A program made the position numbers and the translations under genes. Source: an uncultured Candidatus Saccharibacteria bacterium (lineage in GTDB: Bacteria; Patescibacteriota; Minisyncoccia; Phycocordibacterales; DATGWK01). Taken from it: a stretch of 27,394 bases of DNA. Below are positions 1,770 to 27,392 of the stretch, one piece after another (position 1 is the first letter of the stretch; each line of letters begins with the position of its first letter). The notes under the pieces are model-generated. The model saw only the letters and a list, made by a program, of their open reading frames with translations. It did not search any database and was not told the DNA's origin. The stretch spans positions 1 through 27,394 of the forward strand of contig CAYIYW010000006.1 in the NCBI GenBank assembly GCA_964367845.1, written 5' to 3'.

Positions 1770-2399
1770 ATGACCCCGGAGAATTCGACACCAGTTGATG
1801 ATATGGCCACCCGCCGCGAGCTCATGAAAAAAATCAAGGACGAGGTCGTGAATCTTGAAGGGTCGCCACTCTATAAAGAAAGAATCGCGAACGGCGCGCA
1901 TCCCGTGATCGGCGAGGGCGACCATTTCGCCAAAATCATGTTTGTCGGCGAGGCCCCCGGCAAAAACGAGTCCGAAACCGGTCGGCCATTTTGTGGCGCC
2001 TCCGGAAGAATTCTGGATGAATTGTTGGCGTCCCTCGGCGTTGCTCGCAAATCGGTCTATGTAACAAATGTCGTAAAAGACCGACCGACACAAAACCGCG
2101 ACCCGTTACCGGATGAAATCGCTCTTTATGCGCCATTCTTGGTTAGGCAAATCGGCATAATCCAACCGAAAGTAATCGCCACCTTGGGCCGGTTCTCAAT
2201 GGATTATATTATGAAAAAGTTTGGCCTGGAATTTGAGCTCGGGCCAATTTCAAAAATTCACGGAAAAGTATTTAAGGCAGACGCGCCATTCGGCCGAATA
2301 AAAATCGTGCCGTTGTATCATCCGGCAGTCGCTCTTTACAACGGCGGAACCAAAAATGTTCTTCTGGAGGATTTTAAGGTTCTGACAACTCTTGTATAA
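1770..2399 (+). CDS. udg: Uracil-DNA glycosylase, family 4 type, lacking the Fe-S cysteines
   Basis: IMFVGEAPG, GRPFCGASG, YVTNVVKDRPxxNRDP and YHPA are family-4 UDG motifs. The start could alternatively be a downstream ATG. Confidence 0.88.
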   Translation: MTPENSTPVDDMATRRELMKKIKDEVVNLEGSPLYKERIANGAHPVIGEGDHFAKIMFVGEAPGKNESETGRPFCGASGRILDELLASLGVARKSVYVTNVVKDRPTQNRDPLPDEIALYAPFLVRQIGIIQPKVIATLGRFSMDYIMKKFGLEFELGPISKIHGKVFKADAPFGRIKIVPLYHPAVALYNGGTKNVLLEDFKVLTTLV

Positions 2400-2400
2400 T
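2395..2400 (+). promoter_or_regulatory. -10 element TATAAT 6 nt before the alaS ATG (putative leaderless promoter)
   Basis: Perfect TATAAT overlapping the UDG stop codon, followed by GAGCCG-ATG(2407). No SD. Confidence 0.55.
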
Positions 2401-2406
2401 GAGCCG

Positions 2407-4227
2407 ATGACATCGTCTGAAATTAGAAAGCGGTTTCTGATCTTTTTTGAGAAACGGGGACATGCAATTATCCCCTCGGCTTCATTGGTGCCGGAGAACG
2501 ACCCGACCGTGCTCTTCAACACCGCCGGTATGCAACCACTTGTGCCATTTTTAATGGGCAACAAACATTCGCAGGGCGATAAATTAGTAAATATTCAAAA
2601 ATGTGTTCGCACCACAGATATTGACGATGTCGGCGACAGAACTCACGCCACCTTTTTTGAAATGCTCGGAAACTGGTCGCTTGGTTCCTATTTCAAGGAA
2701 GAGGCGATTCGCTGGAGTTTTGAATTTTTGACGTCAAAATCAGACGGTCTCGGACTTGACCCGACTCGGCTTTATATAACCGTATTCGGAGGCAACGAAA
2801 AAGTGCCAAAGGACGAGGAAACCACTGAAATTTGGAAGAGCGTCGGCGTGCCTCAAGACAAGATTTTCTACAAAGGGGTTGACTCAAATTGGTGGCCGGC
2901 GGTTAAAGGAAAGGATGTCTGGACTGGTCCAACCGGTCCCTGCACCGAAATGTTTTATGATGTCTCGGGAACAGTCGGCGACATTAAGGGCATTGAGGAA
3001 TTTGATAAAGCCGATGAGGAGCAGAGAATTATTGAGGTTTGGAACGATGTTTTTATGGAATACGAAAAGAAGGAAGGGGCGATAGTCGGGAAGTTGGAAC
3101 AGAGAAACGTTGACACCGGCGCCGGGCTTGAACGGCTGGCCATGGTTATGCAAAATGTTGACAGTATATTTGAGACCGATTTATTTCTGCCGATTATTCA
3201 GAAGATTTATGAGCTATCGGGATTAGAAAATTCAAAGGATAATCCAAATGAGGACCCTGCCGTCAGAATTCTTGCTGACCACGTCAGAACAAGCGTCTTC
3301 CTCATCGCAGACGGCGTTATTCCATCAAACACCGACCGAGGATATGTGTTAAGGCGACTTGTCCGGCGGGCAGTGCGATTTGCCGACAAACTCGGCTTGG
3401 CTTTGGGCGATATTGCAAAATTGTCTGCGGTCGTTCCCCAAATTTACAACCATGCGCATGACAACATCTGGAATGATTTTGACCGTATCCAAAACATTCT
3501 CGCCGGAGAAGAGCAGAAATTCAGAAAGACGCTGTCTGCCGGAATCAAGGAAATCCCCCAAAAAGCCGTGGATAATGCCATTACCGGCGAAATTGCTTTT
3601 AATTTATCGTCAGTGTTCGGTATCCCGCCCGATGTTACCGCAGATGAAGCCAAGTCGTTAGGCATCAAAGTAAAAGGGAATTATGAACAGGATTTTCTGG
3701 ACGCTCAAAAAAGACATCAAGAACTGTCAAGAATCGGTTCAGGCCAAAAGTTCAAAGGCGGACTGGCCGATACCAGTGAAAAATCGCTCAAGTATCACAC
3801 GGCGACACATCTTTTGAACTCGGCGTTAAAAGCGGTGCTTGGCCCGCAAGTGAATCAAAAAGGAAGTAACATCACGCCGGAACGCTTGAGGTTTGATTTT
3901 ACCCACGACAAAAAACTTACCACCGAGCAAATTAAACATGTTGAAAAACTGGTCAATGGAAAGATAAAGGAAAATCTGACAGTTTTCTGCGAGGAAATGC
4001 CTCTTGAAAAAGCGAAGAGTATCGGCGCGATAGGAGTTTTTGACGGAAAATATGCCGACGCGGTGAAGGTCTACTCAATCGCCGACATAAAAACCGGCGC
4101 TGTTTTTAGTCGCGAGATTTGCGGCGGGCCTCATGTTGAGAAAACCGGCGTACTCGGCGATTTCAGGATTGTCAAAGAGGAGGCCGTCTCAGCCGGAGTG
4201 AGGAGAATAAAAGCTGTGCTCAATTAG
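2407..4227 (+). CDS. alaS: Alanine--tRNA ligase, short form without the C-Ala domain
   Basis: LFNTAGMQP, HATFFEMLGNWS, VDTGAGLER, PSNTDRGYVLRR; editing motifs HTATHLL and CGGPH; ends at VRRIKAVLN. ATG 2407 is preferred over TTG 2392 of the ORF track. Confidence 0.97.
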   Translation: MTSSEIRKRFLIFFEKRGHAIIPSASLVPENDPTVLFNTAGMQPLVPFLMGNKHSQGDKLVNIQKCVRTTDIDDVGDRTHATFFEMLGNWSLGSYFKEEAIRWSFEFLTSKSDGLGLDPTRLYITVFGGNEKVPKDEETTEIWKSVGVPQDKIFYKGVDSNWWPAVKGKDVWTGPTGPCTEMFYDVSGTVGDIKGIEEFDKADEEQRIIEVWNDVFMEYEKKEGAIVGKLEQRNVDTGAGLERLAMVMQNVDSIFETDLFLPIIQKIYELSGLENSKDNPNEDPAVRILADHVRTSVFLIADGVIPSNTDRGYVLRRLVRRAVRFADKLGLALGDIAKLSAVVPQIYNHAHDNIWNDFDRIQNILAGEEQKFRKTLSAGIKEIPQKAVDNAITGEIAFNLSSVFGIPPDVTADEAKSLGIKVKGNYEQDFLDAQKRHQELSRIGSGQKFKGGLADTSEKSLKYHTATHLLNSALKAVLGPQVNQKGSNITPERLRFDFTHDKKLTTEQIKHVEKLVNGKIKENLTVFCEEMPLEKAKSIGAIGVFDGKYADAVKVYSIADIKTGAVFSREICGGPHVEKTGVLGDFRIVKEEAVSAGVRRIKAVLN

Positions 4228-4248
4228 AGCAGTGCACTCTGCTATAAT
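4223..4248. repeat. Imperfect inverted repeat ATTAGAGCAG-tgcact-CTGCTATAAT overlapping a promoter
   Basis: 9 of 10 arm positions pair (one G.A mismatch); the right arm contains the extended -10. Confidence 0.5.
4240..4248 (+). promoter_or_regulatory. Extended -10 promoter TGCTATAAT, 7 nt before ATG 4256
   Basis: Exact TGn-TATAAT consensus in the 28-nt intergenic gap. Confidence 0.7.
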
Positions 4249-4255
4249 ATCTTAA

Positions 4256-5431
4256 ATGCACATGTCGTCATTTATCGGTTCTTCAAAAGAGCATGATTTG
4301 GTCCTTAATATCGGCAGTGGCAGTGTCTACGGAGCGATTGTTGAATTTCAAAAGTCCGCACCGCCGAAAATTCTGTTCACACATGAGTCCCGATTGCCGC
4401 TCAAATCAAACGTCGCGGCGGACAATCTGATTTCGCACATGTTGGACGCTCTGCACTCGGTGGTGATTGGCCTCGGGCGCCAGCATAAAAAAAGAATCCG
4501 ACGGGCTCACGTTGTTCTTGCTTCACCATGGTTTTCTTCGTTTTCCAAAGTCCTCTCAATAAAGGAGCAGTCGCCGTTTGTCGTTACAGACAAAACGATT
4601 GAAAAACTCGCAGTTGAGCATATCAATTCGGTTTCCAAGGATGTTATCGCGAGCAGTTCGTCAATCATTGAAAAGGCCCTGTCCGACATACGACTGAACG
4701 GCTACGAAACCAAGGAGCCGTACGGTAAGTCGGCAAAGACCTTGGATGTTTCGGTCTATGCAAGCGCCGCGCCGAAAGAGACAAACAAAAAGATTGAATC
4801 AAAAATATACCAAGTAATTCATCCGGGTTCAATTTCATTTCACACCTTTCCGTTTGTGGCATGGAATGTCCTTCGGTCTTTATTCGCGCCCAAAGATGAT
4901 TTCATTTTTGTGAATATCGGCGGTGAATTAAGCGATGTTTTTATCGTTCGCAGGAATTCAATCCGCGCCTTCGCCTCATTTCCGATCGGCCGAAACCATT
5001 TGACCAGAAAGGCCGCTCTTCATTTTGAAACCCAGCCCGAGCTTGCTTCCACCATTGTTAATCTTTACACAAACGACACGGCCGAAACAGCGTTGCGGGA
5101 AAAAATCAAAACCCTTGTCAACGCTTTTGGGGAGGAATGGAACCACGGCTTTTTGCGTGCCATCAAGGAAATGGAGGCCACACAAGATTATTTCCTCCCG
5201 CAACGGGCCTTTTTTGTTTCCACTCCCAATACATCGGTGATATTTTGTGATATAATCGGCAAGCAGATTCCAAATGTTACCCCACTGTCTCGAGAAAACC
5301 TTTCTCAATTTGTCGGGTTTGACAGCGGTGAGTCGCCGAGCGTGCCGATTATTTTGGAAGCAATTTATATAAACGGTCATTTTTCGGAAATTGAGACCGT
5401 TTACAAACAAGAGCAAACTCCTGTAAAATAA
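4256..5431 (+). CDS. Divergent FtsA-like actin-fold protein (possible pseudo-ATPase)
   Basis: Phosphate-1-like LVLNIGSGSV and phosphate-2-like FVNIGGELSD motifs; a segment resembling FtsA subdomain 1C (IRLNGYETKEPYGKSAKTLDVSVY); FPIGRNHLTR resembles the FtsA/PilM motif xGGxxxT. Confidence 0.6.
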   Translation: MHMSSFIGSSKEHDLVLNIGSGSVYGAIVEFQKSAPPKILFTHESRLPLKSNVAADNLISHMLDALHSVVIGLGRQHKKRIRRAHVVLASPWFSSFSKVLSIKEQSPFVVTDKTIEKLAVEHINSVSKDVIASSSSIIEKALSDIRLNGYETKEPYGKSAKTLDVSVYASAAPKETNKKIESKIYQVIHPGSISFHTFPFVAWNVLRSLFAPKDDFIFVNIGGELSDVFIVRRNSIRAFASFPIGRNHLTRKAALHFETQPELASTIVNLYTNDTAETALREKIKTLVNAFGEEWNHGFLRAIKEMEATQDYFLPQRAFFVSTPNTSVIFCDIIGKQIPNVTPLSRENLSQFVGFDSGESPSVPIILEAIYINGHFSEIETVYKQEQTPVK

Positions 5432-5436
5432 AAACG

Positions 5437-6783
5437 ATGAAAAAAATATTTTTGCAGGATGTCGTGCCTTCGGGAAAGCGTTCCATCCGCAATATTCCTT
5501 TGCCCAACAACAAGTCCGGACCGGCGACAAAGGATGCACAGGTGAATGAAACGAGAACCGGAAAAAATTCACCGAAAAAACCGTCAAACCGCCCGAGGTC
5601 AAACAGAAATTTTGGCAATCTCGGCATTTGGGTTATCGCTCTGATTGTGATTGTCGGGCTTGGCTATGCCGGTTCTTTTTTGTTTGTCTCGGCCACGGTC
5701 ACCGTCATTCCAAAAGAAATTAATGTCGCCATGAACCTAACCGGCACGGCATTTCTTGAGCCGGCAGGGGAGGAACTGGGCTTCACAATCGCGACCCTTA
5801 GCCGAGAAAGCAGCAAGATAATTCCGGCCAGCGGTGAAGAGAAGGTTGAGCGAAAGGCCAGCGGGAAAATTATTATCTATAACAATAACGGCAAGGCCGC
5901 GCAGAAACTTGTCGCCAATACCCGTTTTGAAACGCCGAATGGTTTGATTTTCAGAATTCAGGAATCGGTTTTGGTGCCCGGACAAAAAACCGTGAACAGT
6001 GTTGTTATTCCTGGAAGCGCGACGGCAACCATTTACGCCGACCAGCCGGGCGAGAAGTATAATGTGGGTCTCTCTGATTTCACCATTCCCGGTTTTAAGA
6101 GCGATTCTCGCTTCACAAAAATCATTGCAAAATCCGACCCGAAGTTTCCCATCAAGGGCGGTTTGATTGGAACCGTTAAAAAAATAGCTCCGGCGGATGC
6201 GGCGTCAGCGAAGCTCTCAATTGAAACCCAGCTCAAGAGCGAACTCCGAGAAGATCTGGAGTCGCAAATTCCGGACTCGCATATCCTATTCAACAACGCT
6301 CTCACCTTTAACTTTGAGGAACTGCCGCAGGATAACCAAAATAACGGAATGGAATCTGTCGCAAGGACAAGCACCACTTCCTTAACGGTTGTTGTAAAGG
6401 AGAAGGGCAGTATTTACGGTATTTTATTTGACAGAAACGCCCTCTCAAAATATTTGGCCGAGCGTTCGGTGGAAATCGGGCAAAAAGATGTTTTTGTCTC
6501 AAACCTTGACCTAATAAATTTCACCCTTGAAAACAAAGGCGCGTTTAATCCGGTCACGGCCAGCGAAATAACATTCAAATTGGCCGGCGACACAAGGTTT
6601 GTTTGGAATATCCACAAAGACATCATTTCCGAAGCCCTTGCCGGCCAAAAAAGGCGCGGCGTAAAGGACATTTTGGCTAATTTTGAGTCAGTTCATAAGG
6701 CAAATGTAGCGATAAGGCCGGTTTGGGTCTTTACCTTGCCCGACAAAACCGACAGAATAAAAGTCGCTGTTGGAGACAAATAA
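5437..6783 (+). CDS. Bitopic membrane protein with a baseplate J/gp47-like extracytoplasmic region
   Basis: Basic N-terminal segment and one TM helix (GIWVIALIVIVGLGYAGSFLFV), then ASGKIIIYN...TRFETPNGLIF...VPG...ATIYADQPGEKYNV, a pattern I recognise as baseplate-J-like. Confidence 0.55.
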   Translation: MKKIFLQDVVPSGKRSIRNIPLPNNKSGPATKDAQVNETRTGKNSPKKPSNRPRSNRNFGNLGIWVIALIVIVGLGYAGSFLFVSATVTVIPKEINVAMNLTGTAFLEPAGEELGFTIATLSRESSKIIPASGEEKVERKASGKIIIYNNNGKAAQKLVANTRFETPNGLIFRIQESVLVPGQKTVNSVVIPGSATATIYADQPGEKYNVGLSDFTIPGFKSDSRFTKIIAKSDPKFPIKGGLIGTVKKIAPADAASAKLSIETQLKSELREDLESQIPDSHILFNNALTFNFEELPQDNQNNGMESVARTSTTSLTVVVKEKGSIYGILFDRNALSKYLAERSVEIGQKDVFVSNLDLINFTLENKGAFNPVTASEITFKLAGDTRFVWNIHKDIISEALAGQKRRGVKDILANFESVHKANVAIRPVWVFTLPDKTDRIKVAVGDK

Positions 6784-6806: not shown

Positions 6807-6836
6807 TTGACGAATAAGGGCTATTTCTGTTAGTAT
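6807..6836 (+). promoter_or_regulatory. sigma70 promoter for the infA/alpha operon
   Basis: TTGACG (6807-6812), N18, TAGTAT (6831-6836) with extended TG at 6828-6829. Confidence 0.7.
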
Positions 6837-6858
6837 GGCATCCATTGCGATATTTGAG

Positions 6859-7080
6859 ATGCAAGACAATAAACAACCTGTCAAAACCGTGTGCGGGGTA
6901 GTAACCGAGTCACTCCCGAACACGCTTTTTAAAGTGAAAATTGATGGGGCGGATGACGAAATGCTGGCCTATCTGGCGGGCAAAATGAGACTCCATAGAA
7001 TTAGAGTTCTCATCGGCGACAGAGTCAACATTGAGCTGGACCCGTATGGCGGCAAGGGCAGAATTGTAAAGCGTTTGTAA
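6859..7080 (+). CDS. infA: Translation initiation factor IF-1
   Basis: [15 protein letters not shown]...[28 protein letters not shown] 6859 is preferred because ATG 6835 overlaps the -10 element. Confidence 0.95.
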
Positions 7081-17953: not shown

Positions 17954-19033
17954 ATGATTATTGATATCGTAAAGGTCTTTCTCCCGTCTATTTTGGCTTT
18001 TGCCGGAGGTATTGCGATTACCTACATTCTCACGGCTCAACTCTATAAACACAAGATGTGGAAAAAGAAAGCCGGTAAGGTTGATTTTTCCGGCAATGAA
18101 ACGACGCTTTTTAACGAACTTCATAAGGATAGGGAGGTGAATGTCCCGCGAATGGGAGGAGTTGTCATTTGGTTGTCGGCGGGAATAACTATCTTTTTTC
18201 TTTGGGCTTTGGGTCAAATTTTCCCCACGGATTTATTTCAAAAAATTGATTTTTTAAGCAGGAATCAGACCTGGATTCCTTTGACGGCTCTTATCTTCGG
18301 CGGCTTGATTGGCTTAATTGACGATTACCTTGAGGTCAGGGGGTCGGGGAATAACCTTCATGGAGGATTGGCGCTAAAAAAACGCCTGATTGTCGTGGCC
18401 GTCGTCGGCCTGCTTACCGCCCTTTGGTTTTATTTTAAGCTTGATATTTCGTCAATCGGTTTCCCCGGACTGCCTAACGGGATTGAACTGGGATTTCTTT
18501 TTGTGCCGTTATTCATGATTGTGGCGCTTGCAATTTACTCCGGCGGAGTGATTGACGGCATTGACGGATTGGCCGGCGGTATTTTCGCCAGTATCTTTGC
18601 GGCTTACGGCGGTATCGCCTTCTATCAACAGCAAATTAATTTAGCGGCATTCTGCGCACTCATCGTTGGAGCGATTTTGGCCTTCCTTTGGTTTAACATT
18701 CCGCCCGCCCGTTATTACATGTCGGAAACCGGCACCATGGGTCTTACTTTAACCTTGACCGTTGTGGCGTTTATGACTGACCGGCTGGGAGGCGGTTACG
18801 GCTTACTTGTTTTGCCGATTATCGCTTTACCGCTCCTTGCGACATCCATTTCAAGCATAATTCAGGTTGCGTCAAAAAAATTCCGACACGGGAAAAAGAT
18901 TTTTTTAATCGCGCCTCTTCACCATCATTTTGAAGCCATTGGTTGGCCGGCCTACAAAGTAACAATGCGTTATTGGATTTTCGGGGTTGTCTGCGCCATT
19001 CTTGGCCTGATTATCGCCCTTGTAATCAGATGA
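17954..19033 (+). CDS. mraY: Phospho-N-acetylmuramoyl-pentapeptide transferase (divergent)
   Basis: PRMGG, GLIDD, DGIDGL, FLWFNIPPA, APLHHHFE; polytopic membrane protein upstream of ftsW-murG. Confidence 0.9.
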   Translation: MIIDIVKVFLPSILAFAGGIAITYILTAQLYKHKMWKKKAGKVDFSGNETTLFNELHKDREVNVPRMGGVVIWLSAGITIFFLWALGQIFPTDLFQKIDFLSRNQTWIPLTALIFGGLIGLIDDYLEVRGSGNNLHGGLALKKRLIVVAVVGLLTALWFYFKLDISSIGFPGLPNGIELGFLFVPLFMIVALAIYSGGVIDGIDGLAGGIFASIFAAYGGIAFYQQQINLAAFCALIVGAILAFLWFNIPPARYYMSETGTMGLTLTLTVVAFMTDRLGGGYGLLVLPIIALPLLATSISSIIQVASKKFRHGKKIFLIAPLHHHFEAIGWPAYKVTMRYWIFGVVCAILGLIIALVIR

Positions 19034-20142
19034 GACGCGAGCATCGCGTTGACAGATGGTTTCTGACTGCGGTCTTCGTCATGACCGTCGCCGGTTTTTT
19101 AATTTTTATTTCGGCCTCGCTCGGTTTATTAGCTCGCGAAGGAGCCAGATTCTCAAATGTTGCGTTCTCGCAGACCTTTTTGGGATTATTCATGGGCACT
19201 GTCGCCTGCATCGCCACCTCCAGAATCAATTACCGTTTTTGGAGAAAATACGCCTTTTACATCTTTTTGCTGTCAATCCTGATTACATTGCTTCTTTTCA
19301 TCCCTGGAGTCGGCGTGAAATACGGCGGAGCGGTTCGTTGGATTTTTGTCGGGCCGATTTCCTTTCAGCCCTCGGAATTATTAAAAATCGGTTTTATTAT
19401 TTATCTGGCGGCATGGCTCTCAGGAGCGAAAAAGAACGTCCAGACAATCCAATATGGAATTTTGCCGCTGGCTCTGCTCTGCGGACTTGTCGGGACTATC
19501 CTTCTAAGCCAACCCGATACCGATACTTTTCTCATCGTCCTCGGTGCGGCGCTGGCCATGTTTGCGGTCAGTGGAGGAAGGTGGCGTCATATTTTTTTAT
19601 TGATTTTAATAACCGCCATCGGTCTAGCCGTTTTTGCCTACTCAAAACCGTACATCAAGGACCGGCTCCAAACCTTTATTAATCCGAGTCAGAATCAACT
19701 TAGTTCAGGATATCAGCTCAATCAATCACTCATCGCCATCGGTTCGGGCGGAATGTTCGGTCGTGGATTCGGTCAAAGCGTTCAAAAATTCAGCTTTCTG
19801 CCTGAACCGATAGGGGATTCAATTTTTGCTGTCATGGCCGAAGAATTCGGTTTTGTCGGTAGCATCGGGCTGATATTTCTGTATTTATTTTTTGCTTTTC
19901 GCGGTTTGCGAATAGCCATGAATTCTTCAGATACCTTCGGTGGACTATTGGCATTTGGAATTGTTATACTTATAGTGACCCAGTCGTTTTTCAATATCGG
20001 CGCAATGCTTGGTATCCTGCCCCTCTCCGGAATTCCGCTTCTGTTTGTCAGCCACGGCGGCACCGCACTGTTTATCACGCTCGCCGAGGCCGGCATCGTC
20101 CTGAACATTTCGCGTTTCCAAAGTAACAAACGACTGGTTTAG
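19030..20142 (+). CDS. ftsW: SEDS peptidoglycan polymerase FtsW
   Basis: GAVRWI, FQPSELLK, QPDTDT, AIGSGG...QSVQKFSFLPEPIGDSIFAVMAEEFG, PLLFVSHGGT. ATG 19030 overlaps the mraY TGA (ATGA). Confidence 0.92.
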   Translation: MRREHRVDRWFLTAVFVMTVAGFLIFISASLGLLAREGARFSNVAFSQTFLGLFMGTVACIATSRINYRFWRKYAFYIFLLSILITLLLFIPGVGVKYGGAVRWIFVGPISFQPSELLKIGFIIYLAAWLSGAKKNVQTIQYGILPLALLCGLVGTILLSQPDTDTFLIVLGAALAMFAVSGGRWRHIFLLILITAIGLAVFAYSKPYIKDRLQTFINPSQNQLSSGYQLNQSLIAIGSGGMFGRGFGQSVQKFSFLPEPIGDSIFAVMAEEFGFVGSIGLIFLYLFFAFRGLRIAMNSSDTFGGLLAFGIVILIVTQSFFNIGAMLGILPLSGIPLLFVSHGGTALFITLAEAGIVLNISRFQSNKRLV

Positions 20143-24312: not shown

Positions 24313-25479
24313 ATGAAACCCGCATTGCGATTTCCGGAAAAATTTTTGTGGGGCGCGGCTTGCGCTTCTTATCAGGTTGAAGGCGGAATAGAAAACTGCG
24401 ATTGGGCCATGGCGGGCAGAGCGGGGAGAGTGCCTCCCTGCGGTTCGGCCTGCGACCATTACAACCGTTATGAATCCGATTTTGACAATGCGCAAAAGCT
24501 TGGACACAACAGCCACAGGATATCAATTGAGTGGGCTAGAATTGAACCTGAAGAAGGCCAATTTGACCGGAACGAGGTCGTTCATTACAAGAACGTAATC
24601 AAAGCGTTAAGGGCGCGCGGTTTGGAACCGATTGTGACTTTGTGGCATTTTACTTTGCCGGCCTGGTTCGCCAACGACCGCGGATTTGAAAATCCAAAAT
24701 CAGTGGAGCGTTTCGGGAAATATGCGGAATTCGTGGCAAAGGAAATTTTGAACGAAGTCAAATTCGTTCAAACCATAAACGAGCCGCTTGTTTGGGCCGG
24801 CAACGGCTATATCCGCGGTTATTGGCCACCATTCAGAAAGAACTATATATCCTATCTCAAGGTCGTTAGGAATCTCGCAACGGCTCACCAAAAAGCATAC
24901 GAAACGATTAAAACCGTGCGAGGAGATTTACTCGTTGGCATTGCCAAAAACAACATGTTCTTTTCGGCAAAGGGCGTGAATCCATTGAATTATCTGATGG
25001 CTGTTGTTTCCTCATATTGGTGGAACAGATATTTTTTGAGCAAAATCAGGCGGGAATCGGATTTTATCGGACTTAACTTTTATAAAACACTTGTATTCGG
25101 CCCCAAGTCGTCACTGCCCAAATCCGATATGGGCTGGGATATTTTTCCGGAGGGAATATATCATGTACTAAAAGAACTCGGCCGTTATAAAAAACCAATC
25201 TACGTAACGGAAAACGGAGTGGCTGACGCCGATGATTCCATCAGAAAAAATTTTATTCGGGACCATCTGATTCAGGTTCACGGAGCAATTCAGGAAGGTG
25301 TTGATGTCCGAGGTTACTTTTATTGGTCGTTATTGGATAATTACGAATGGGCCCACGGTTTTGAAAAACGCTTCGGCTTGATTGAAGTTGACTTTGTGAC
25401 TCAAGAAAGGCGAATCAGGGCCTCGGCCATCGCTTACAAAAATATCTGCGAAACCAACGCACTTGAAACCGAATCATGA
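24313..25479 (+). CDS. Glycoside hydrolase family 1 (compact beta-glycosidase)
   Basis: FLWGAACASYQVEG, DHYNRY, RISIEWARI, TLWHFTLP, acid/base TINEP, nucleophile YVTENG, WSLLDNYEW. Confidence 0.95.
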   Translation: MKPALRFPEKFLWGAACASYQVEGGIENCDWAMAGRAGRVPPCGSACDHYNRYESDFDNAQKLGHNSHRISIEWARIEPEEGQFDRNEVVHYKNVIKALRARGLEPIVTLWHFTLPAWFANDRGFENPKSVERFGKYAEFVAKEILNEVKFVQTINEPLVWAGNGYIRGYWPPFRKNYISYLKVVRNLATAHQKAYETIKTVRGDLLVGIAKNNMFFSAKGVNPLNYLMAVVSSYWWNRYFLSKIRRESDFIGLNFYKTLVFGPKSSLPKSDMGWDIFPEGIYHVLKELGRYKKPIYVTENGVADADDSIRKNFIRDHLIQVHGAIQEGVDVRGYFYWSLLDNYEWAHGFEKRFGLIEVDFVTQERRIRASAIAYKNICETNALETES

Positions 25480-26363
25480 ATAACTGGCTTTTATTCGTCG
25501 TCATAGGACAATTTTTCTACGCCGCAGTCGTTTTGACTGACAGATTCATCATCACTAAAGGCGTTGTTCCAAAACCAATTGTCTACACCTTTTATGTCGG
25601 CCTGTTGTCTATTTTTGCCATAGGCGCACTGCCATTTGGCGTCACACTGCCATCCGGAACGACAATCGGACTTTCCATTATCGCCGCAGTCAGTTATGTC
25701 CTCTCAATTTACTTATTGTATGAATCCCTAAAAAAGTCAAATCCATCGGAAGTCGTGCCGGTAGTCGGCGGAATAGCCGCCATTTCAGCGTTTATAAGTA
25801 GCGCGCTTATTTTGAACACGGGTCTACCCGGACATTTTCTTACCGGTTTTGCAATTTTGGTTGCCGGCATGCTCCTTATATCGCATTTCAGGTTTACCAC
25901 GCGGGCTTTTTTGTTTCTTTTCGGTTCCGGCGTCTTTTTCGGCCTTTCTACGGTTATCATCAAAGCCATCCTTGAAAATGAGACCTTTGTAAACGGTTTT
26001 TTCTGGTCACGAATGGCAAATGTTCTTGTGGCGATATCTTTCCTGTTGGTTCCAAGGATTTACACGGCAATTAAGGAGGACATCGGCCGGCCAAATAAAT
26101 CAGGCAAAACAACCATGGTAGTGGGGAATAAGATTTTGGCCGGAATGGGTTTTCTTTGCATTTTAATTGCCCTAAAATTCGGCAATGCCTCCATTGTCAA
26201 TGCTTTAACTGCAACCCAATATGTTTTTCTTTTAATTTTTGCGGTATTCTTTAGTAAACTCCTGCCGGAATATTTTGAGGAAACAGTTCACCGCCATGAA
26301 TTCCTCCACAAATCTCTTGCCACCGGCCTGATTGTTGTCGGATTCGTCGTCCTCTTTTTGTAA
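25476..26363 (+). CDS. EamA/DMT-family 10-TM transporter
   Basis: Two repeats of five hydrophobic helices; YESLKKSNPSEVVP and ALKFGNASIVNAL motifs; ATGA overlap with the GH1 gene. Confidence 0.8.
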   Translation: MNNWLLFVVIGQFFYAAVVLTDRFIITKGVVPKPIVYTFYVGLLSIFAIGALPFGVTLPSGTTIGLSIIAAVSYVLSIYLLYESLKKSNPSEVVPVVGGIAAISAFISSALILNTGLPGHFLTGFAILVAGMLLISHFRFTTRAFLFLFGSGVFFGLSTVIIKAILENETFVNGFFWSRMANVLVAISFLLVPRIYTAIKEDIGRPNKSGKTTMVVGNKILAGMGFLCILIALKFGNASIVNALTATQYVFLLIFAVFFSKLLPEYFEETVHRHEFLHKSLATGLIVVGFVVLFL

Positions 26364-26367
26364 TTTT

Positions 26368-26373
26368 TATAAT
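26368..26373 (+). promoter_or_regulatory. Candidate -10 element TATAAT upstream of the last gene
   Basis: Perfect TATAAT just after the EamA stop. Confidence 0.4.
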
Positions 26374-26389
26374 ACGAATCTCACGCTCT

Positions 26390-26413
26390 ATGTCACTAAT
26401 AAAACTCCAATAA
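26390..26413 (+). other. 7-codon ORF MSLIKLQ* abutting the TTG start of the last gene (uORF or frameshifted true N-terminus)
   Basis: ATG TCA CTA ATA AAA CTC CAA TAA, then T, then TTG(26415). Confidence 0.3.
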
Positions 26414-26414
26414 T

Positions 26415-27392
26415 TTGACCAAGAAAATCCTGCTTTTAATAATCATTTTCACCGGGTTGGCCGTCGCCTCAATTCGCAAAATGCCCGATAAAGTTGATTA
26501 CGGCGTTTCCTTCAGCGTCCTCCACGCCCGCGAGCTTGGTTTGGATTGGAAAATGGTCTATAACGCGCTCATAGATGACCTCGGCGTCCGTCAATTCCGG
26601 CTCTCGGCCCATTGGCCGATTACCGAACCAAAAAACGACGTTTTTAATTTTTCAGAACTTGACTATCAGATAACTAGAGCCGAAAACCACGGCGCCTCCA
26701 TAATTCTGGCCGTCGGCAGGCGTTTGCCCGGTTGGCCGGAATGCCACGAGCCCGAGTGGACAGAAAAACTTTCAAAAGAAGAAAAGCGTGAGGAGTTGCT
26801 TGAATATATTTCTCGGGTCGTAAACCTGTACAAGAACTCTCCCGCAATTTCCCATTGGCAAATTGAGAACGAGCCGTTCCTGACGGGATTCGCCAAGCGC
26901 CAGTGCCAGGATTTTTCAGACAAGGAATTTCTAAAAGAAGAAATCGCGCTTGTCCGGTCGCTTGACCCGAACAGACCGATTTTGGTCACCGACAGCGGTG
27001 AGATTGGTTTTTGGTACGATGCCTACAACCTTGGCGACTCATTCGGCACCAGTTTGTATCTTTATGTGTGGAATCAAAAAATTGGACCGTTTAGATATCC
27101 GATTACTCCGGCTTTTTTTAGGATTAAACGGAACATCATTGAACTCATATATGGAAAAAAGGACAGTTTACTCATTGAACTCTCGCTTGAGCCGTGGCTG
27201 TTACAGCCGATTAAGGATACGCCGATTGAGACATCGCTAAGCCGAATGGACATTGATAAATTCAACAAAATCATCAAATTTGCCCAAAAAACAGGTTTTG
27301 AGGTTCAGTACCTGTGGGGCGCCGAATGGTGGTATTACATGAAAATAAATAATCATCTGGAGTTTTGGAAGAGAGCGAGAGAATTATTTTGA
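26415..27392 (+). CDS. Membrane-anchored clan GH-A glycoside hydrolase (GH5/GH42-like TIM barrel; family uncertain)
   Basis: N-terminal TM (KKILLLIIIFTGLAVASI), FRLSAHWPITEP, GRRLPGWPECHEP, acid/base-like WQIENEP, TDSGE, IELSLEPW, LWGAEWWYY. Complete, with TGA at 27390-27392; start uncertain. Confidence 0.7.
   Translation: MTKKILLLIIIFTGLAVASIRKMPDKVDYGVSFSVLHARELGLDWKMVYNALIDDLGVRQFRLSAHWPITEPKNDVFNFSELDYQITRAENHGASIILAVGRRLPGWPECHEPEWTEKLSKEEKREELLEYISRVVNLYKNSPAISHWQIENEPFLTGFAKRQCQDFSDKEFLKEEIALVRSLDPNRPILVTDSGEIGFWYDAYNLGDSFGTSLYLYVWNQKIGPFRYPITPAFFRIKRNIIELIYGKKDSLLIELSLEPWLLQPIKDTPIETSLSRMDIDKFNKIIKFAQKTGFEVQYLWGAEWWYYMKINNHLEFWKRARELF

Follow-up and report, generated by a model that had tools for sequence, protein, structure and literature searches.

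A widely kept gene pair of Patescibacteria coding for an actin-like protein and a membrane-anchored baseplate-J-like protein

Why should a bacterium with a small genome keep, among its housekeeping genes, an actin-like gene directly followed by a gene for a membrane-anchored protein that resembles a phage baseplate component? The question is raised by contig CAYIYW010000006.1 (assembly GCA_964367845.1) of an uncultured Candidatus Saccharibacteria bacterium, of which we analysed a stretch of 27,394 nucleotides, called the window in what follows. The two genes, here gene 1 and gene 2, form a single operon unit, and their features are listed in Table 1. An earlier reading of the letters made without database searches (the sequence-only reading) had taken them for a self-contained unit with a 5-nt gap, lying outside any phage or division and cell wall (dcw) context, in which an FtsA-like protein docks on the N-terminal peptide of its partner. 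Our analysis finds the pair far beyond the window's lineage, and we consider it moderately probable that the two proteins constitute a membrane-spanning module in which gene 2 is the core, gene 1 binds its N-terminus and the whole has a role in envelope growth or division.

The model of the gene 1 protein, built with an alignment of its relatives (predicted local distance difference test, pLDDT, 87; predicted template modelling score, pTM, 0.86), has the FtsA/PilM fold with a 1C-type (SHS2-type) insert. Foldseek searches returned FtsA (3wt0, 4a2a, 7q6i) and PilM (5eou, 2ych) with E values of 1e-16 to 1e-20 and template modelling (TM) scores of 0.57-0.70, the FtsA chains standing at about 1e-20 and 0.59-0.70 over about 390 columns. 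Family models score below their thresholds: PF14450 reaches 25.7 bits, under its cut-off of 31.8, TIGR01174 (FtsA) reaches 23.6 bits, far under 175.85, and PF11104 (PilM_2) gives no match to gene 1. The aspartates of the phosphate-1 and phosphate-2 motifs are replaced by N18 and N220, GGELSD stands where GGGTTD is expected, and the GGG adenosine motif is lost; the protein is probably a non-catalytic adaptor. Its last 13 residues (379-391) are disordered and polar in the model, which contains no C-terminal amphipathic membrane-targeting helix. The actin fold, the FtsA-like insert and the missing helix had all been proposed from the letters of the window, and the model bears out each of them.

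To which actin-like family does gene 1 belong? In a maximum-likelihood tree of 54 sequences, FtsA, PilM and MreB each form a 100/100 clade, and the long and short forms of gene 1 described below stand together across a 99/91 branch from the three. The short forms are long-branched, and their exact position is therefore less sure, yet they fall outside FtsA and PilM. The gene 1 family is thus a third lineage in the FtsA/PilM branch of actin-like proteins. The possibility that gene 1 is simply the only ftsA of its genome is ruled out by a canonical ftsA (247.8 bits) that adjoins ftsZ on contig 27 of the same genome; the PilM genes lie on contigs 20 and 31, and PilM_2 matches in the genome are confined to contigs 20, 31 and 27. 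Five distant genomes repeat this arrangement, with a canonical ftsA (359-399 bits) elsewhere and the gene 1 orthologue as the second-best match of the FtsA model (95-115 bits).

The gene 2 protein (model pLDDT 84) begins with 58 strongly basic residues that are disordered in the model, continues with one transmembrane helix (residues 60-83) and ends in a beta-rich ectodomain at residues 85-448, in agreement with the layout read off the sequence; the model and the basic N-terminus together predict an N-in topology. In the N-terminal peptide, D8, P11, I17, R18 and I20 are invariant or nearly so among 51 relatives, and variants of the motif are present in other short forms of gene 2. The part of the sequence-only reading that singled out this peptide stands, since it is nearly invariant; the docking on it, and the ring of wedge domains that was imagined outside the membrane, are taken up below as parts of a proposed mechanism.

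The ectodomain matches at least 15 baseplate J/gp47/gp6 chains in Foldseek (E 5e-7 to 1e-3, probability up to 1.0), which come from phi812, Pa193, XM1, A-1(L), Mu, diffocin and T4 and are covered over 350-390 columns. VIA-align gives Z scores of 10-12 for the ectodomain against such chains, and 11.6 for its beta-barrel against Mu gp47 (root mean square deviation, rmsd, 2.6 over 97 residues). Cellular proteins of AlphaFold DB annotated as having a baseplate J-like domain match with E values of 1e-30 to 1e-21. Among the sequence profiles, PF21110 scores 22.8 bits and PF04865 is marginal (12.3 bits, E 0.024, cut-off 21.1), with longer gene 2 orthologues of other families exceeding the latter cut-off at 23-32 bits. 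Structure searches with the ectodomain gave no match to PilN/PilO. Both of the folds that had been expected, actin and baseplate J, are therefore recovered by structure. A word-based search found more than 1291 relatives of gene 2, and the gene 1 profile found 4180 cluster representatives (1687 below 1e-30), so that these are real genes and not chance open reading frames (ORFs).

No relative of gene 2 longer than 822 aa or fused to another protein was found, which is weak evidence. Two clusters of the ESM Atlas are to be mentioned in this connection: a Chloroflexota cluster (834 aa) with a Ser/Thr kinase, in which half of the members have Baseplate_J and the match to the gene 2 ectodomain is weak (TM 0.30), and a Komeiliibacteriota cluster (719 aa) with PilM_2/FtsA Pfam matches, whose weak match to the ectodomain is an unverified lead. 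In both, the J-like module may be naturally fused to a cytoplasmic partner; no actin/J-like fusion is present among the 150 matches listed in a phylum-wide PilM_2 scan.

A baseplate fold invites the view that gene 2 remains from a prophage or tailocin, with gene 1 as an unrelated neighbour, and the likeness to baseplate J is all that speaks for it. As the sequence-only reading had noticed, no tail, sheath or ftsZ genes lie in the window, and no GPW_gp25 or sheath match was found in the whole assembly (624 kb, 92.5% complete, of the Patescibacteria type). Gene 2 is moreover anchored in the membrane, it has been passed on throughout the phylum in one and the same housekeeping setting, and its counterpart has a fitness effect in Southlakia epibionticum. 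A prophage remnant is ruled out by the lack of gp25 and sheath matches in the assembly together with the phylum-wide distribution, which by itself already contradicts this view, and we regard it as almost certainly wrong.

The distribution was determined in 201 genomes spread over the phylum; these tallies include one unpublished genome (G154), on which alone no claim depends. Members of the gene 2 family occur in 172 of the 201 genomes and members of the gene 1 family, at E<=1e-10, in at least 127. The latter value is an underestimate, because four of seven further loci from the window's class also have the pair, with gene 1 just under the threshold. According to their coordinates and strands, the two genes keep the same order nearly everywhere. 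Adjacent gene 1 and gene 2 ORFs were found in 26 of the 28 extracted loci, including one with a divergent gene 2 (L097), and the spacing in relatives ranges from gaps of about 0-100 nt to overlaps. The co-conservation that the sequence-only reading had left to be checked is therefore real.

The usual order is alaS-gene1-gene2(-ruvX-mltG). Distant relatives have alaS upstream of the pair, and downstream of it stand ruvX and/or mltG in three distant lineages and the ribosomal alpha operon in others; the complete genome of Kazan-3B-28 is among the distant genomes compared. In L097, RNase J and not alaS lies upstream, and the downstream gene varies elsewhere. No pil genes were found in the window, nor next to the pair in the loci that we inspected. 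In some genomes, additional short paralogues of gene 2 lie at other places.

Two loci of this collection are peculiar in the place of gene 1. In a genome of the window's order (G178), about 1 kb without an ORF of at least 150 aa separates alaS from gene 2 (L149:1309-2294), and this stretch, which is the expected site of gene 1, may be a decayed copy of it. In another genome, alaS and the gene 1 orthologue share one frame of 1003 aa with tRNA-synt_2c, tRNA_SAD and FtsA Pfam matches (L132:2978-5989, on G194:C11); this may be a real fusion or may come from a lost stop codon or an assembly error, and the genes are separate in relatives of the same family.

The comparison of the window's pair with its relatives reveals two forms. 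In most classes gene 1 is longer (414-447 aa), with canonical motifs for phosphate 1 (DIGTE.VK), phosphate 2 (DIGGGTTD) and adenosine (CGGGSALP) and with a conserved C-terminal helix, and gene 2 has 480-650 aa, with a conserved cytoplasmic N-terminal domain of about 85 residues and a variable linker ahead of the membrane helix. In the window's lineage gene 1 has none of these motifs, nor the C-terminal helix, and gene 2 has lost the N-terminal domain and kept only the nearly invariant peptide. Both forms occur close to the window: a genome of its class (G077) has the long form of both genes, and a genome of its order (G143) the short form of both. On the sequences compared, the window's pair is a reduced derivative of the phylum-wide form, and change on both sides of a presumed interface is as expected of partners. 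Descent of the short peptide from the long-form N-terminal domain is unsupported, as the profile-profile comparison (A3 vs A2) was not significant (E 0.76) and placed the alignment elsewhere. A sequence search of the PDB with the profile of the long-form N-terminal domain gave matches at chance level (E >= 0.8), and the label SpoIIAA-like that we use for it comes from Table S2 of the Southlakia study cited below and not from a fold of our own.

What, then, happens to a cell that loses these genes? Counterparts of both are found in strain ML1 of Southlakia epibionticum, where the locus reads alaS (SEML1_0657) - SEML1_0656 - SEML1_0655 - ruvX - mltG (Wang et al., Cell 2023, PMC10633639, Tables S1/S2). 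SEML1_0656 (1284 bp) is listed there as 'pilus assembly protein PilM' with an FtsA fold, and SEML1_0655 (1671 bp) as 'baseplate J/gp47 family protein' with a SpoIIAA-like domain at 6-105, a beta-barrel at 256-365, a G3P-like domain and a gp6 C-terminal domain III; both belong to core families enriched in Patescibacteria (PMC10633639). The two genes overlap by 47 nt. We identify them with the pair in the window on the strength of synteny, gene size and domain architecture, and not of a sequence alignment. A LysM protein is also a neighbour of the pair in Southlakia.

In the transposon sequencing (Tn-seq) data of that study, the hidden Markov model (HMM) calls for SEML1_0655 at T0, T1 and T2 are non-essential, essential and essential (NE/ES/ES, class II essential), with normalised reads of 373, 34 and 24, and those for SEML1_0656 are non-essential, non-essential and growth defect (NE/NE/GD), with 2427, 660 and 221 (PMC10633639). 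The main text of the paper is silent on both genes, with 0 occurrences of 'baseplate' or 'FtsA' (PMC10633639). Since insertions in the upstream SEML1_0656 are tolerated, strong polarity is unlikely, and the requirement for SEML1_0655 is probably its own.

The annotation as PilM leads to the question of whether the pair is a variant of the inner-membrane alignment part of the type IV pilus (T4P), with gene 1 acting as PilM and gene 2 standing in for PilN/PilO. In its fold gene 1 is as close to PilM as to FtsA, the pair and a PilB-type ATPase are present even in families that lack a PilM_2 match at E<=1e-8, and the Komeiliibacteriota cluster mentioned above would, if verified, bring PilM_2/FtsA and the ectodomain together. 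Against these points, a bona fide PilM is also present in this genome and in most others, the gene 1 family is a clade separate from PilM, no pil genes stand beside the pair, and the ectodomain has nothing of PilN/PilO that structure searches would recognise. Furthermore, most T4P genes are class I essential in Southlakia, unlike the pair, whose members are class II essential or show a growth defect (PMC10633639). We hold a pilus variant to be quite improbable.

The explanation that we prefer, a membrane-spanning module, would work as follows. Gene 2 would be the core and would expose on the outer side of the membrane a module derived from the phage wedge protein J/gp47/gp6, made of the beta-barrel and C-terminal alpha/beta domains. 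Gene 1 would bind the cytoplasmic N-terminus of gene 2, by analogy with PilM-PilN, FtsA-FtsN and MreB-RodZ, and this binding would cluster or position gene 2. Across much the greater part of the phylum, gene 1 would be a working ATPase with its C-terminal helix, seated on the folded domain of about 85 residues of gene 2; in the window's lineage both sides would have been cut down together, and gene 1 would serve there as a static adaptor attached to the short peptide that is conserved. It is worth noting that several lineages keep gene 2 without gene 1, which makes gene 2 the core and gene 1 the accessory part.

Those same lineages are among the observations that weigh against this explanation. 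Gene 2 without a detectable gene 1 occurs as alaS-gene2 in G022 and G026 and as alaS-PGI-gene2 in G068, and in four families (L127-L131, from G059, G003, G106, G128 and G148) alaS is followed by a gene 2 of 690-783 aa, a sortase and then rpsM, again without gene 1. G026 retains the peptide motif of gene 2, which therefore cannot serve the docking of gene 1 alone. The joint reduction of both genes is a single evolutionary event and makes a weak argument for co-evolution. The binding of gene 1 to gene 2 is inferred from operon linkage, the conserved peptide and the joint reduction. Only the neighbours (mltG, the sortase, the LysM protein) and analogy point to wall growth or division as the possible role. 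In Southlakia the severity differs, mutants of SEML1_0655 being more strongly affected than those of SEML1_0656, and the essential call of SEML1_0655 could be partly polar on ruvX.

Three remarks define how these observations are to be read. The broad gene 1 profile (A4) cross-matches canonical FtsA and PilM and by itself gives no proof that gene 1 is absent, so its absence in G022 and G068 rests on their best actin-like matches being the known ftsA and pilM loci. The gene 2 relatives of 690-783 aa have an N-terminal region of 300-400 residues without a Pfam hit. When a complex between gene 1 and residues 1-40 of gene 2 was predicted, the score was 0.00, which says nothing either way on binding.

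The same observations favour another explanation, namely that gene 2 acts alone as a membrane-anchored extracytoplasmic binder or sensor, for instance of wall material, and that gene 1 is a dispensable neighbour which does not bind it and is held in place by a frozen order of housekeeping genes. Besides occurring without gene 1, the gene 2 family is the commoner of the two (172 vs 127 of the 201 genomes) and its counterpart has the stronger phenotype in Southlakia; the kinase and Baseplate_J of the Chloroflexota cluster, a weak match, would be a sensor architecture. However, the tight adjacency or overlap of the two genes is kept where the flanking genes differ, as with the RNase J of L097 or another downstream gene, both partners changed on the same branch, and in the loci that we inspected the gene 1 family always had a relative of gene 2 beside it. 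We consider a solitary gene 2 unlikely.

Baseplate proteins are part of host-recognition machines, and this raises the alternative of a host-attachment or epibiotic surface apparatus, in which the baseplate-like domains would be an adhesin or receptor-binding platform and would have nothing to do with the cell's own wall growth. Consistent with it, the family is enriched in Patescibacteria, and in Southlakia the counterpart becomes necessary only once the cells have grown out on the host (class II). Yet J, gp47 and gp6 are structural wedge proteins and not receptor-binding parts, and the pair, which has housekeeping genes around it, is nearly universal whatever the host. An attachment apparatus seems to us decidedly doubtful.

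The membrane-spanning module could also be carried further, to a domesticated wedge protein that has become a near-universal, fitness-critical component of the envelope. Its gp6-type C-terminal domain would form rings or arrays, and the third actin-like family would organise them from the cytoplasm, giving a trans-envelope machine of division or of the epibiotic cell cycle with no counterpart in model bacteria. This bolder version of the module is an attractive but unlikely one.

The features on which the analysis is based are compiled in Table 1.

Table 1. Positions in the window of gene 1, gene 2, their parts and the neighbouring features; + is the forward strand.
Feature	Position	Strand	Description
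Gene 1	4256-5431	+	391 aa; actin-like protein of FtsA/PilM fold with decayed nucleotide motifs
Intergenic gap	5432-5436	+	5 nt
Gene 2	5437-6783	+	448 aa; bitopic membrane protein, predicted N-in, with baseplate-J-like ectodomain
Cytoplasmic N-terminal peptide of gene 2 (aa 5-23)	5449-5505	+	QDVVPPxxRSIRNIPLP; candidate docking site
Single transmembrane helix of gene 2 (aa 60-83)	5614-5685	+	Helix in the model; K/R-rich segment before it
Beta-barrel domain of gene 2 (aa 135-248)	5839-6180	+	Common to baseplate J/gp47 and GlxA domain 2
alaS, short (611 aa)	2392-4227	+	Upstream neighbour of the pair; kept in distant relatives and in Southlakia epibionticum
Extended -10-like TGcTATAAT	4240-4248	+	7 nt before the gene 1 ATG; read off the sequence
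infA	6835-7080	+	Opens the downstream ribosomal alpha-operon block (rpsM, rpsK, rpsD, rpoA, rplQ)

The extended -10 upstream of gene 1 that the sequence-only reading had pointed out is present as a motif only, as a scan for the two consensus hexamers lists no -35/-10 pair at that place; being 7 nt ahead of the ATG, it would result in a leaderless-type transcript. The promoter that had been placed ahead of infA coincides with a promoter-like site of the consensus scan at 6807-6836. In both gene 1 and infA a -10-like hexamer reaches the start codon or lies within a few bases of it (4240-4258 and 6807-6837), which suggests leaderless transcripts or mis-called starts. One public gene call for gene 1 begins at the second Met (389 aa). 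Syntenic loci are annotated with eIF-1a, S13, S11, S4 and RpoA, which match the infA block downstream of the pair, and L17 is present in the window.

The window further holds a number of genes for housekeeping functions: grpE-dnaK-dnaJ, a class Ib tRNA synthetase (Trp/Tyr family), scpAB, a DD-carboxypeptidase, mraY, ftsW, murG, gltX and an M23 peptidase. The pair had been described as lying outside the dcw context, and it is true that no wall genes adjoin it, but mraY-ftsW-murG are found about 11 kb downstream in the same window, so that 'not adjacent' is a better wording than 'far'. The ORF of mraY (17954-19033) and the listed ORF of ftsW, which starts with TTG at 18943, overlap by 91 nt (region 17954-20142), and the true start of ftsW is probably further downstream than this TTG. 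Ahead of alaS (57-2399) lie a protein with an ATP-cone and an Mrr-type nuclease, a PD-(D/E)XK (Cas4-like) nuclease and a uracil-DNA glycosylase; a Taylorbacteria contig (L013) has the same nuclease/glycosylase block ahead of alaS, and synteny thus extends beyond the pair. Near the other end (24313-27392) there are two glycoside-hydrolase-like genes with an EamA transporter between them, which are an unusual cargo for so small a genome. One of them codes for a GH1 protein of 388 aa that covers only the first ~250 of the 453 positions of the family model, and the other, a GH42/GH10-like ORF, continues to the end of the window.

How new is this pair? In the literature on baseplate J or on FtsA/actin-like proteins in Patescibacteria and the candidate phyla radiation, we found nothing on it. 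The claim of an undescribed system holds for the function, but the families are annotated in public records, where they are not characterised, and published Tn-seq data exist. The present analysis adds the extent of the pair across the phylum, its long form together with the joint reduction, a tree, and the link to the Southlakia data. A large part of bacterial diversity belongs to the Patescibacteria, and most of their lineage-specific core genes have no assigned function; few of these genes are as widespread as the pair, and SEML1_0655 is essential after outgrowth in the sole genome-wide screen available. If the pair were a true scaffold, it would be a fourth example of an actin-like protein with a bitopic partner, and it would clearly illustrate how a structural protein of phages can be recruited by the cell. 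A direct test is feasible, as both Southlakia epibionticum and Nanosynbacter lyticus can be cultured and transformed, and the long and the reduced forms offer a natural experiment on which parts of the module are dispensable.

It remains to compare the pair with the systems that it resembles. The closest single-domain match to residues 138-241 of gene 2 is domain 2 of GlxA, the radical copper oxidase of Streptomyces (PF21110, 4unm/5lqi), to which VIA-align fits the gene 2 barrel with a Z score of 14.2 and an rmsd of 1.8 over 98 residues at 24% identity; the barrel alone is common to the two, and gene 2 has no oxidase domain. With baseplate J, Mu gp47 and T4 gp6 (PF04865), gene 2 has in common the beta-barrel and the order of the domains that follow it, residues 85-134 lying outside the baseplate matches. 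These wedge proteins have a further relative, TssF, in the type VI secretion system. Unlike them, gene 2 is a membrane-anchored, cellular protein that is vertically inherited across the phylum, with no tail genes in the window and no gp25 or sheath match in the assembly.

Of the actin-like systems, FtsA-FtsN (7q6i, 4a2a, 3wt0) shares with the pair the actin fold with a 1C-type insert, FtsA chains being the best structural matches of gene 1 (TM up to 0.70), and a partner, FtsN or gene 2, that is an N-in bitopic protein with a short cytoplasmic peptide. The differences are that gene 1 is a separate clade without linkage to ftsZ, that the window's copy has no C-terminal membrane helix and has decayed ATP motifs, and that the ectodomain of FtsN is SPOR whereas that of gene 2 is baseplate-like. 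PilM-PilN (2ych, 5eou), with an equally good fold match, has the same order of an actin-like gene and then its bitopic partner. PilN has a recognised N-terminal motif, and the conserved gene 2 peptide, which ends in prolines, is reminiscent of it; gene 1 differs in having no PilM_2 hit, a clade of its own and no pil neighbours, and the gene 2 ectodomain is unrelated to PilN/PilO. In MreB-RodZ, the folded N-terminal domain of RodZ binds the cytoplasmic, actin-like MreB. The actin subfamily is another one, the N-terminal domain is reported as SpoIIAA-like in the pair and is a helix-turn-helix in RodZ, and the ectodomains are unrelated; for the long form, however, MreB-RodZ is the better analogy, since in both a small folded N-terminal domain is carried by an N-in bitopic protein with a beta-rich outer domain.

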